From positions 8,727-72,726 of the IMG/VR virus record IMGVR_UViG_3300041955_001937: a stretch of 64,000 nt of DNA; one strand, written 5' to 3'. Positions within the stretch are counted from its first letter, which is position 1. The number at the start of each line of letters is the position of its first letter. Positions 19,001 through 22,000 of the stretch are shown piece after piece. The DNA comes from a virus. Made by a program: the position numbers.

Positions 19001-22000
19001 CGGATCTACGGCGCGATATGAAAGACCACATCCCCACACTTGCGTTAGTCGCATCGCTGGCAATGATTCTTATCGCGCTGGTGGTGCTCTCGCTGAATGC
19101 GAAGAGCGGTGGAGCTACCCCGGTGCTGATCGGGCTGGTCGGGGCAGTGGGAACGGTGACGGGGATACTCGGCGGGTTCTCGCAACACAACAAGACGGCG
19201 ACGGCGTCGCAAAAAACGACGGAAACGGCAATAGAAACCCAATCAAAGGAAAACACAACATGAGCTTTATAACGGCATTCAAAACGGCATGGAAAGATCT
19301 CAAGTCCGACTTCACGAAAGTCGACACCTTCCTGATCGCGAACGAACCCAAGATCCAGTCGGCAATTCAGACCGGAGTGGCAATAACGGAAGCGCTTGTT
19401 CCGGCCGCCGCGCCCGTTCTGACAACTCTCGATGCGTTCGAAGAGACTGCAGTGCCGGAACTGCTCGCCACAATTGCCGCCGGCAACGCTGTGGTGAATG
19501 CCACATCCGGCACCGCGGCGGTGACACTCTCGGCCGGACTATACAGCTCGCTCAAGACCCTCGTGGGCACACTCTCGAATCATCCGGCCGTCGTTGCCGC
19601 AACTGCGCCCGCAACCACGCCGACTGCGTAAGCGATCAGGGGGCACTCAAACGAGTGCCCCTTGTTTCCTGGCCGAGGACCAAAGTAATGAACTGGCTTT
19701 ACAAACAATCGACGGGCGAACTGCAGCACGGTGACCAGCCCGCAGGCATCGGCTACAGTGGCCACGGAGAAGGCCGGAACAATCCGGCAATGCAGGCTGT
19801 GCACGATGTGGGGCCGCTGCCACGCGGCTGGTACACCATCGGGCCGGCGCACGACACCACGACGCACGGCCCCCACGTCATGTGTCTGACGCCGGATGCC
19901 GCGAACGATGAAGACGGACGCTCCGGCTTCCTGATGCACGGTGACAACGTGAAGCATGATGCTTCGCTGGGGTGCATCGTCATGGGGCCCGTCATCCGCT
20001 ACGCGGTGAGCGCGAGCACGGACAAACGACTGCAGGTCGTGGCTTAGATGAAAACCGTCGCGTCAAAGCCGGCTGTCCCCGTTCTTCCGGAGCTGAAGAT
20101 CGAAATGTGGCCGATCGATCGGCCGATTCCGTATCCGAAGAACGCGCGGAAGTGGAGCGCGCAGGCGATCGTGAAGGTGGCGGCATCGCTCAAGAAGTTC
20201 GGCTGGAGACAGCCGCTGGTCGTAGACGCCCAGGACGTGATTATCATCGGCCATCTGCGGCAGGCTGCGGCGCGCTACCTCGGCCAGGAATTCGTGCCGG
20301 TGCACGTGGCGTCCGATCTTTCGGATGTGGATGTCAAGGCGCTGCGCATCGCCGACAACCGCACGCACGAAGAGGCGACGTGGAACGCGAAGCTGCTGGG
20401 CGCGGAAATGATCGACCTGAAGGTGGCCGATTTCGATCTTAATATTACGGCGTTCGAGCCGGCCGAGATCATCGAGAGCATCTTCGGCGGCGCCGGCGGC
20501 AATAAGAAGAATCCTCCGGCTCCGCCAACCGGCGAGGTCCCGGACTTCGAGGCGGTGAGCGAAGCCGAACAGGGACGGCTCGATCAGGCGAAACGGCAGT
20601 GTCCGAAGTGCGGCCATGAGTATTTTGAAGCTTGACTGGTGCAGTCACGAAGCGGCGCGGTATGCGGTGCAGCGCTGGTACTCGAGGCCCGACATGCCGG
20701 TGGGGAAACTGGCGAAGATTGGCGTTTGGGAAGACGGCGCGTTCATCGGCGTGCTGATTTTCGGCTGCGGCACGGGCGGCGTGCAGAAGATCGGGGAGAA
20801 GCTCGAAACCGGCAAATTCGGCACGGCGGAGTTGTCGCGGATCGCGATGGGAAGCCACGTGGCGCCCGTGAGCCGGATCATTCGCATTGCCCTGATGCTG
20901 CTCACCAGAGCGCAGCCCGGGTTGCGGCTGATCGTTACCTATGCGGATCCGGCGGCGGGGCATCACGGGGGCGTGTATCAGGCGGGCGGATGGATCTATG
21001 CCGGCAGGAGCTCGAAGGACCATGTGTATCGCGATGCGGCCGGAGTCGACCATCATTCGATGCGGACGAGCGCCACCGGGTGGAAGATGTTGAACGGCAA
21101 GATGACGCGAGTGGTGAGGACCGGCGACTGCACGAAAATTCCGCTGGAGCCGAAGCACCGGTACCTGATGCCGCTGGACGATGAAATGCGTGCCAAAGTA
21201 GAGTTGTTGAGAAAGCCGAGCCCGAAGCCGGCGAAAACGCGTCCGTAGTATTCCAGCGAAACATCCGCCGCCCAGGCGGAAGAGGGCGGGCCAGCACCGA
21301 CCCGGACGCTCCAAATTATGCGTTGACCGAATGGACCGGCAGTACTACGACATCGACGACGTGGAGATTCGTGCGGGAGTTGTGGCTCATCTGATTCGGT
21401 TGGGGAAGCGCCCGCCTTTGGGACAGACGGTGGGTTTCGCCGCGCAGACGAAGGTGGTCCAAAGTGAAGCCGACATAGGCAATCCGAGCAAAGTGATCTC
21501 AGAAGGTGAGCGCATCTGGTGCCAGTTCACGATCACGCGAGGCGACATAGACCGTGCCCACAAGCTCATCGATGACCAGACGATTACTTACGGAGAACCC
21601 AAGACTTCAAAGATGAAGTTCGATTGGCGGCGCGGGCGGCGAATTTGATCCCGGCGGCGAATCCATTTCCGCGCAGGCGATTTCGTTTCGCCCAGGCGTC
21701 CCGCCGGTACCCATCGAAAAAAGTCGAATGAGTTGGCGGGGTTACTTCGCGTGCGGCGGGCGCTGGACTAACCGCGCGCGTGGTCCCTGTTCTCGCGCGT
21801 GGTCCCTCTCCAGCATTCCCAAACGCCTTCGATCTCGACCTTGAATCCGAGATCGCCCGGGTAAGCGTGTATTCGTCGGATCAACCCGATGACGGCGACG
21901 ATATCCAGGACGATCTGGTCATCCATTCCCCACAAGTCGGTTGGATCCCAGCCGCCGTTCTCCTCGGCGTTATGCCAAGCCAGGAGAAAATTCGCCACCC

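Follow-up and report, generated by a model that had tools for sequence, protein, structure and literature searches.

The 3′ end of the DNA-modification gene mom was found to hold a conserved tRNA-Gly-like cloverleaf RNA element, both in a 64,000-nucleotide (nt) stretch of viral DNA (hereafter the window; positions 8,727–72,726 of the 72.7-kb IMG/VR provirus record IMGVR_UViG_3300041955_001937) and in a large family of related loci. From the nucleotides that this family keeps and those that it gives up, we infer charging of the RNA with glycine and its use by Mom, and the element would probably be a private, non-ribosomal glycyl carrier for that enzyme. Mom of phage Mu has been shown to move glycine from Gly-tRNAGly to adenine N6 in double-stranded DNA (Silva et al., Nat Commun 2026, PMC13219725), and this donor had been named in an earlier interpretation of this DNA made without database searches (the sequence-only reading).

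Folding and homology analyses showed that the element in the window has the general architecture of a tRNA (cloverleaf, 7-bp acceptor stem, three arms, discriminator base and CCA; Table 1). The 75-nt cloverleaf and its stems, the T discriminator, the encoded CCA, the CCC anticodon and the placement of the mom stop codon TAG at RNA nt 8–10 had all been proposed by the sequence-only reading, and all are present. U33, G18G19 and a T54-Ψ55-C56-type T-loop are near-universal in elongator tRNAs; the element has G33 and lacks the other two, and these alterations, like the T-loop GCCAGCA and the bulged A at 21300, agree with the earlier description. RNAfold predicted a cloverleaf-like minimum free energy structure (−31.8 kcal/mol, z −2.33) whose stability was equalled by 2 of 200 shuffled sequences. 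Model R1 scored the element at 72.8 bits as its single match across the whole 72.7-kb record, and did not match the two genuine tRNAs of the window, tRNA-Ser and tRNA-Arg. Model R2, built from 83 metagenome elements with the window excluded, recovered exactly 21239–21313 (70.3 bits, E 1.6e-16) as the sole match in the 64-kb window. The element is more than chance. As the sequence-only reading had predicted, standard tRNA finders miss it: ARAGORN called nothing there (its calls in the window were limited to tRNA-Ser and tRNA-Arg at 10031–10266), the Rfam tRNA model RF00005 gave no match in 20900–21700 even at E ≤ 10, and no Rfam family covered the element in the window or in 14 related loci scanned. 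Among those 14 loci RF00005 scored one alone (L012; 28.3 bits, just below the gathering threshold of 29 bits).

Table 1. Coordinates of the tRNA-Gly-like element, its parts and the adjoining genes in the window.
Feature	Position	Strand	Description	Basis
tRNA-Gly-like RNA element	21239..21313	+	75-nt cloverleaf; last 10 nt of mom lie inside the element	Fold, R1/R2 scores, family covariation
Acceptor stem, 5′ strand (GCGTCCG)	21239..21245	+	Perfect pairing with 21303–21309	
TAG	21246..21248	+	mom stop codon, element positions 8–10	
D-arm	21248..21262	+	Stem GTAT/AAAC with one A·A mismatch; loop TCCAGCG without GG	
Anticodon arm	21264..21280	+	Stem TCCGC/GCGGA; loop CGCCCAG; CCC at 21271–21273; G at position 33	
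T-arm	21285..21302	+	GGCGG, loop GCCAGCA, CCG-A-CC; bulged A at 21300	
Acceptor stem, 3′ strand (CGGACGC), with discriminator and CCA	21303..21313	+	Discriminator T (21310); encoded CCA (21311–21313)	
Frame past TAG	21249..21326	+	Open to TGA at 21324–21326	Relatives translate the homologous stretch as Mom C-terminal tail
mom	20616..21248	+	210 codons + TAG; Mom-family GNAT	Pfam PF25680, PHROG 1384
ParB-like nuclease-domain gene	20048..20635	+	First gene of the cassette; end overlaps mom start	PHROG 620, E 1.5e-43; Pfam ParB_N weak
Next gene	21331..21648	+	105 codons, no family; starts 18 nt past CCA	

Sequencing runs were compared with the window. Twelve runs matched, two of them RNA runs with small shares. 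An independent DNA run spans 20997–21542 with zero differences, which rules out an assembly error as the source of the in-frame TAG. The RNA-run contigs (20600–20998 in X12, about 93% alike; 21091–21241 in X8, two differences) are short and show neither RNA ends nor transcription, and the X8 contig end at 21241 is that of one read-length piece, giving no evidence of a cut. In a wetland DNA run (X2), contigs break at both edges of the element (one ending at 21240, one starting at 21301), and a second run spans it intact; the breaks may reflect branching of the assembly graph where co-occurring phages carry similar elements.

The element recurs with Mom across three collections, which provides the check that the sequence-only reading had called for. 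In the 80 viral loci, those of the best 80 of 590 viral-contig Mom homologues, model R1 found exactly one match apiece, always at the mom 3′ end, and it did likewise in the window and in Arthrobacter phage Sonny; in all 82 sources the 7-bp stem opens with GC, and TCCA nearly always follows it. R1 matches were also present in 79 of 80 metagenome loci (four of these with tandem pairs). Among 61 bacterial-genome loci, R2 recovered the element in 38, of which 36 are full and 2 are truncated at a contig end. The hosts named in the records include Planctomycetota, several Proteobacteria classes, Ignavibacteria, Acidobacteria, Chloroflexota, Cyanobacteria and Actinobacteria, among others. A complementary search started from the RNA side, with a pattern of the T-arm and 3′ acceptor end that did not require mom (80 viral stretches fetched out of at least 120). 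Among the matches listed, 81 fitted the pattern: 57 overlapped or adjoined the 3′ end of a Mom open reading frame (ORF), 14 stood immediately upstream of a more distant Mom gene, 2 came 127 and 1273 nt after mom, and 8 had no Mom in the fetched piece, of which 6 had less than 350 nt of upstream DNA. Neither near mom nor elsewhere in the genome was the element found in phage Mu, Pseudomonas phage JD024 or Enterococcus phage phiEf11, and nine Pseudonocardiaceae-type prophage mom loci are also without it. Together, these surveys show that the element is tightly, almost exclusively linked to Mom genes. The close Mom relatives P0001–P0004 stand at 67–98% identity, and a metagenome scan for close relatives returned nothing above 52% identity.

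Covariation analysis supports the cloverleaf at the level of every helix. We used a MAFFT alignment of 22 long-form elements with a hand-written cloverleaf (A3), the 60 distinct R1 matches from viral loci (A4) and the 75 distinct R1 matches from metagenome loci (A6), 68 of which are absent from A4; A4 and A6 are aligned to the model and so favour its structure, whereas A3 and an ungapped acceptor-stem alignment (A2) are free of that bias. The proportion of paired cells was 97.8% in A3, 98.0% in A4 and 97.5% in A6, compared with 74.8, 72.1 and 72.2% after shuffling and 33–43, 31–43 and 31–42% in slid controls, with compensatory change in 17, 18 and 19 of the 21 pairs, respectively. Double changes in A3 numbered 100 cells against 24.5 expected, and no shuffle out of 500 reached the observed values. 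Acceptor pairs 1–3 never vary in A3, and pairs 4–7 are 100% paired with 8–13 double changes among the 22 sequences; in A2, pairs 4, 5 and 6 are paired in 59/59 with 23, 32 and 33 double changes. The D-stem is 90.9% paired in A3 (compensatory change in three of four pairs) and the anticodon stem 99.1% (five of five), and the acceptor stem and T-arm are the best-conserved helices, at 99–100% paired in A4 and A6. Because G·U and U·G combinations far outnumber A·C and C·A (29 to 3 in A4, 33 to 6 in A6), the pairing is that of an RNA of the mom sense strand. These data show a conserved cloverleaf RNA in which all four helices covary, as the sequence-only reading had asked to see; the outcome which that reading had named as refuting it, the lack of such a cloverleaf at other mom homologues, did not arise.

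The positions that do not vary correspond to those that a glycyl-tRNA synthetase (GlyRS) would recognize. Bacterial GlyRS determinants are described as G1-C72, C2-G71, C35, C36 and U73 (PMC10464925). The window carries this full published set together with G3-C70, in line with the earlier claim, and in the family G1, C2, C35, G71, C72 and U73 are invariant, and G3, C70 and C36 nearly so; the GCG…/…CGC-U-CCA frame and NCC, whose retention had been put forward as a check, are thus retained. Acceptor pairs 4–7 change freely. Across 59 distinct elements, T73 is present in 59 and encoded CCA in 54. Sequence comparison therefore shows the element to keep exactly the nucleotides that bacterial GlyRS would read.

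This pattern bears on a role as a processing signal only. Transfer RNA folds can act as punctuation at which longer transcripts are cut, and the element might do no more than attract RNase P or 3′ tRNA nucleases so that the operon transcript is cleaved after mom, the released RNA having no job of its own. The acceptor stem and T-arm, which are the parts that RNase P reads, are the best conserved, and the next gene begins 18 nt past CCA. Cutting needs no C35, C36 or A37, no U73 and no GCG at positions 1–3, yet these are invariant; tandem copies would be useless for a cut site, and elements also occur in front of mom. We regard this explanation as improbable.

Features tied to decoding follow the opposite course. 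Only 16 of 47 seven-base anticodon loops have U33, and 22 of 47 have A34; we know of no bacterial tRNAGly with A34. In 17 of 22 long-form elements, positions 32 and 38 form a pair that leaves a loop of five bases. A D-stem is missing from 30–35 of 60 elements (A4), the T-loop follows the canonical TTCRANY pattern in about 9 of 59 and a bulged A between the second and third T-stem pairs occurs in 58 of 59 distinct elements. The affinity of elongation factor Tu (EF-Tu) for the tRNA body is described as depending almost wholly on the first three T-stem pairs (PMC7826273). By the same comparison, the features that decoding would need are shown not to be kept by the element. The T-loop of the window belongs to a common variant group (GGCAGCA/GGCAGTA and relatives) and, judged from these sequences, does not look like decay. 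The sequence-only reading had called the RNA degenerate, and in this it was mistaken: the bulged A, the non-U33 and the non-TTC T-loop are conserved family traits.

An ordinary phage tRNA-Gly for translation, supplying codons or replacing host tRNA cut by defence nucleases, is therefore hard to reconcile with the loss of U33, the frequent A34, the T-stem bulge, the rarity of TTCRANY and the missing D-stem in half of the family. ARAGORN did call tRNA-Gly(acc) in 2 of 60 related loci (L008 and L012), and in Microbacterium phage Appa the Mom gene is followed at 33 nt, on the opposite strand, by an annotated tRNA-Gly(ccc) of canonical form. The window element gives no Rfam tRNA match at E ≤ 10 and lies inside an ORF, and the family is linked to Mom rather than to structural or highly expressed genes, all of which make a translational tRNA highly improbable.

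Analysis of the mom reading frame separated the RNA from the protein that overlaps it. The sequence-only reading had placed the RNA behind mom; it instead lies inside the gene: 53 of 59 distinct elements are read from end to end as part of mom, whose stop then falls 5–137 nt past CCA. In the remaining 6 of 59, the mom stop falls inside the element, at six different positions (8, 11, 19, 23, 35 and 45). In the window, read-through of the TAG would open 25 further codons that can be aligned with the tails of relatives (for example, 83% identity with P0002; alignment of 17 sequences drawn from 1719 Mom homologue matches). This similarity suggests a reading without any RNA, in which a nonsense mutation has truncated the C-terminal tail of Mom, leaving the stretch as its remnant, and the cloverleaf arose as a by-product or by chance. 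Mom tails in 80 viral-contig homologues, however, fall into three unrelated ‘peptide’ classes that are the three frames of one nucleotide sequence, which overturned the coding-tail candidate, and the discriminator base lies in codon phase 2, 1 and 3 in 36, 13 and 10 of the 59 distinct elements. Because mom reads the element in all three frames, selection acts on the RNA or its nucleotides rather than on the peptide. The covariation of paired positions with tolerance of G·U, the ORFs that end inside the element and the copies upstream of mom, outside any tail, likewise speak against a remnant, and this reading is practically untenable.

In the window the TAG is in frame, the codon phase at G1 differing from that of the nearest long-form relatives. 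Since the Mom domain is complete and five other lineages stop inside the element, the TAG is a normal variant and the gene is not broken. Recoding of the TAG was considered and set aside, given the six different in-element stop sites among relatives and the absence of a suppressor tRNA from the ARAGORN calls in the window. A phage attachment site (attP) using a tRNA was also rejected: the full cloverleaf is fixed to mom and internal to the provirus, and the genuine tRNAs are 11 kb off. In the linear Sonny genome, the element lies at 46.1 of 50.9 kb, which also counts against an attachment-site reading.

The position of the element relative to mom bears on whether it acts in cis or in trans. 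The thrS operator mimics tRNAThr, and the main rival to a carrier is a comparable cis-acting tRNA mimic in the mom mRNA, which would bind Mom, GlyRS or another tRNA-binding factor and set translation or decay without donating glycine. The element is within the coding region and co-transcribed, a scan of 19500–21900 found no promoter-like or terminator-like site, and the stop codon position wanders through and past the element, as such a mimic would allow. In Mu, mom is described as toxic and tightly controlled (PMC3378877, PMC6483171). The two placements (57 in the mom 3′ end and 14 upstream) and the tandem pairs are hard to square with a cis mimic, as are the invariant U73, the CCA encoded in 54/59 and the invariant C35/C36 far from the acceptor end, which point to recognition by GlyRS and a free 3′ end. 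The RNA stays with Mom while changing position, and its two positions and tandem copies are more readily explained by a product acting in trans than by one acting in cis. A cis-acting mimic is thus a possible, although not a likely, account.

Variants of the arrangement were recorded alongside. The upstream-type elements (L089, L099, L120, L124, L130, L131, L133, L134, L141, L145, L155, L157, L158 and L160) look more canonical (for example, L157 has the D-loop GG and U33) yet keep the bulged A in the T-stem. Tandem pairs follow mom in L267 (932–1000 and 1007–1075), L289, L322, L330 and L164 (pattern matches 69 nt apart), and look like a dosage increase of the RNA product. In a Methylocystis sp. 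LW5 prophage (L232, 2171–2240), the element is detached, about 90 nt past the mom end, and its sequence is almost the same as that of the embedded Methylosinus copy (L226). The Sonny element (NC_041933.1, 46133–46206, equal to L082 2095–2168) is unannotated and overlaps the mom stop; its T-loop, TTCAATT, is canonical, its T-stem is free of the bulge, and CCA is not encoded. Mom matches occur in 22 Arthrobacter phage records, among which Sonny was the one examined for the element.

In the carrier reading that we favour, the element would be a gene for a small tRNA-Gly-like RNA inside the mom 3′ end that is transcribed with mom. The RNA would be matured from the ParB–mom transcript, the likely route being an RNase P cut at G1 followed by trimming to CCA, and host GlyRS would glycylate it. 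The bulged A of the T-stem, the non-U33, the frequent A34 and the 32–38 pair would make it a poor substrate for EF-Tu and the ribosome, and Mom would take glycine from it for the N6-adenine modification of phage DNA. With its own carrier, the phage would be spared competition with translation for Gly-tRNAGly.

Several observations weigh against this reading. Mu Mom is described as needing a terminal 3′ riboadenosine, rejecting Gly-tRNAAla and working with all three Escherichia coli isoacceptors, its donor being scavenged from the host (PMC13219725). This use of host isoacceptors, together with the mom loci without the element (Mu, JD024, phiEf11 and the nine Pseudonocardiaceae-type loci), indicates that a private carrier is not required for Mom chemistry. 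The GlyRS of L. plantarum is described as preferring a purine at position 4 and a pyrimidine at 69 and as needing the whole L-shape (PMC10464925); position 4 is a pyrimidine in 54 of 60 elements (A4) and half of the family lacks the D-stem. A closed five-base loop might also hinder reading of the anticodon by GlyRS. On the protein side, the residues described as needed in Mu Mom are H58, Y59, R111, S124, D149, R151 and Y159 (PMC13219725), and the phmmer alignment of the window Mom to Protein Data Bank (PDB) entry 8bv8, Mu Mom (E 1.2e-4), which is one of low identity, keeps five of the seven: Y59, R111, S124, D149 and Y159 correspond to Y22, R75, S86, D111 and Y121, whereas H58 aligns with W21 and R151 with A113. 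The residue matching the essential R151 would thus be an alanine in the window Mom. Either the alignment is off at this point, or the ParB-linked Mom clade may build that part of the active site differently. The A113 position (about 20952–20954) varies among close relatives, and an invariant His (H116) lies three residues further.

A last difficulty is that excising the RNA would sever the mom mRNA ahead of its stop codon: because the stop lies past CCA (53/59) or inside the element (6/59), cleavage at G1 always removes it. One way to accommodate this is a two-in-one transcript, in which Mom and the carrier would be made from the same bases in competition. A transcript translated to its end would give Mom, one cut at G1 would give the carrier and a stop-less mom message whose product is discarded, and this built-in switch would set the ratio of enzyme to donor. 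We consider such a switch unlikely. In its boldest version, uncut mRNA would be trimmed to CCA and glycylated, so that the 3′ end of the mom mRNA itself would load Mom.

A near counterpart among known systems comes from staphylococci. Staphylococci are described as keeping non-proteogenic tRNAGly for GNAT-fold Fem transferases, a lineage described as staphylococcal only (PMC7826273). These RNAs (NP1–NP3, for FmhB, FemA and FemB; PMC7826273) would share with the element the role of an extra glycine tRNA for a GNAT-fold aminoacyl-transferase outside translation, as well as charging by GlyRS (predicted for the element) and altered T and D arms, with weak EF-Tu and ribosome binding described as measured for the staphylococcal RNAs (PMC7826273). 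They differ in that they are chromosomal, confined to one lineage, of standard length and detected as tRNAs, and feed peptidoglycan synthesis, whereas the element is phage-borne, lies inside the ORF of the enzyme, has a bulged T-stem, often lacks the D-stem and would feed DNA modification. We treat the staphylococcal tRNAGly as a putative functional analogue, not as the same family. Mu Mom and the window Mom belong to the same protein family (PF25680; phmmer to 8bv8) and would use a donor of the same kind, and Mu differs in scavenging host tRNA and having no element in its genome, whereas the window clade is ParB-linked and carries the RNA.

Other tRNA-like RNAs resemble the element in part. 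The 3′ tRNA-like structures of plant RNA viruses are also tRNA mimics in viral messengers that end in CCA, with synthetase identity kept and decoding lost. Those of TYMV, BMV and TMV stand at the 3′ end of an RNA genome, have a pseudoknotted acceptor arm and serve replication or translation; the element, by contrast, is internal, has a plain 7-bp acceptor helix and lies in a DNA phage operon with a gene 18 nt downstream. The mascRNA of MALAT1 (RF01684), which RNase P and tRNA 3′ enzymes release, is likewise a tRNA-like fold embedded in a longer transcript, but is eukaryotic and not aminoacylated; a sub-threshold match of its model in L012 (21.8 bits, gathering threshold 42.5) is the sole link to that family. 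The Appa tRNA-Gly(ccc) (NC_047972.1, 30320–30394, equal to L081 2160–2234 on the minus strand) is convergent with mom and follows a hairpin. It is, like the element, phage-encoded, of glycine identity and adjacent to Mom, and R1 scores it at 47.4 bits, but it is canonical (U33, GG, TTCGATC, no bulge), on the opposite strand, free-standing and annotated. Appa pairs Mom with a glycine tRNA in another manner.

We further characterized the genes around the element. The window Mom matched Pfam PF25680 at 117.6 bits (cut-off 27.1) over profile positions 3–202 of 202. The ParB-like gene ends no more than 150 nt from the mom start in 74 of 80 viral loci, so that ParB-like gene, mom and RNA make up a cassette of three parts; the annotations of phages Appa, Sonny and phiEf11 also show a ParB-like gene paired with Mom. 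A genuine tRNA-Ser(gct) (10031–10123, minus strand) and tRNA-Arg(ccg) (10190–10266, plus strand) stand back to back about 11 kb ahead of mom, and may mark host DNA or the provirus attachment region. In one related locus (L007, 259–326), an Rfam int-alpA RNA (RF02996; 37.3 bits, gathering threshold 35.8) lies about 1.7 kb upstream of mom.

The literature search returned no report of a mom-linked tRNA-like RNA, and the text of PMC13219725, with its supplements outside that check, contains neither ‘tRNA-like’ nor ‘phage-encoded tRNA’. The transfer of glycine by Mom from charged tRNA onto DNA was itself first demonstrated in 2026 (PMC13219725). The family flags a class of tRNA-like genes missed by annotation pipelines, and cultured phages such as Arthrobacter phage Sonny, with its unannotated copy, offer test systems. 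If our reading is true, the element would be the first dedicated tRNA for nucleic-acid modification and, with the staphylococcal Fem system as the earlier example, the second ‘non-proteogenic’ tRNA known from nature. It would also be a rare structured RNA gene nested in the ORF of the very protein that it serves; enzyme and carrier together would make a compact module for DNA aminoacylation. A large and widespread branch of Mom phages appears to bring its own donor, one shaped for loading rather than for decoding.

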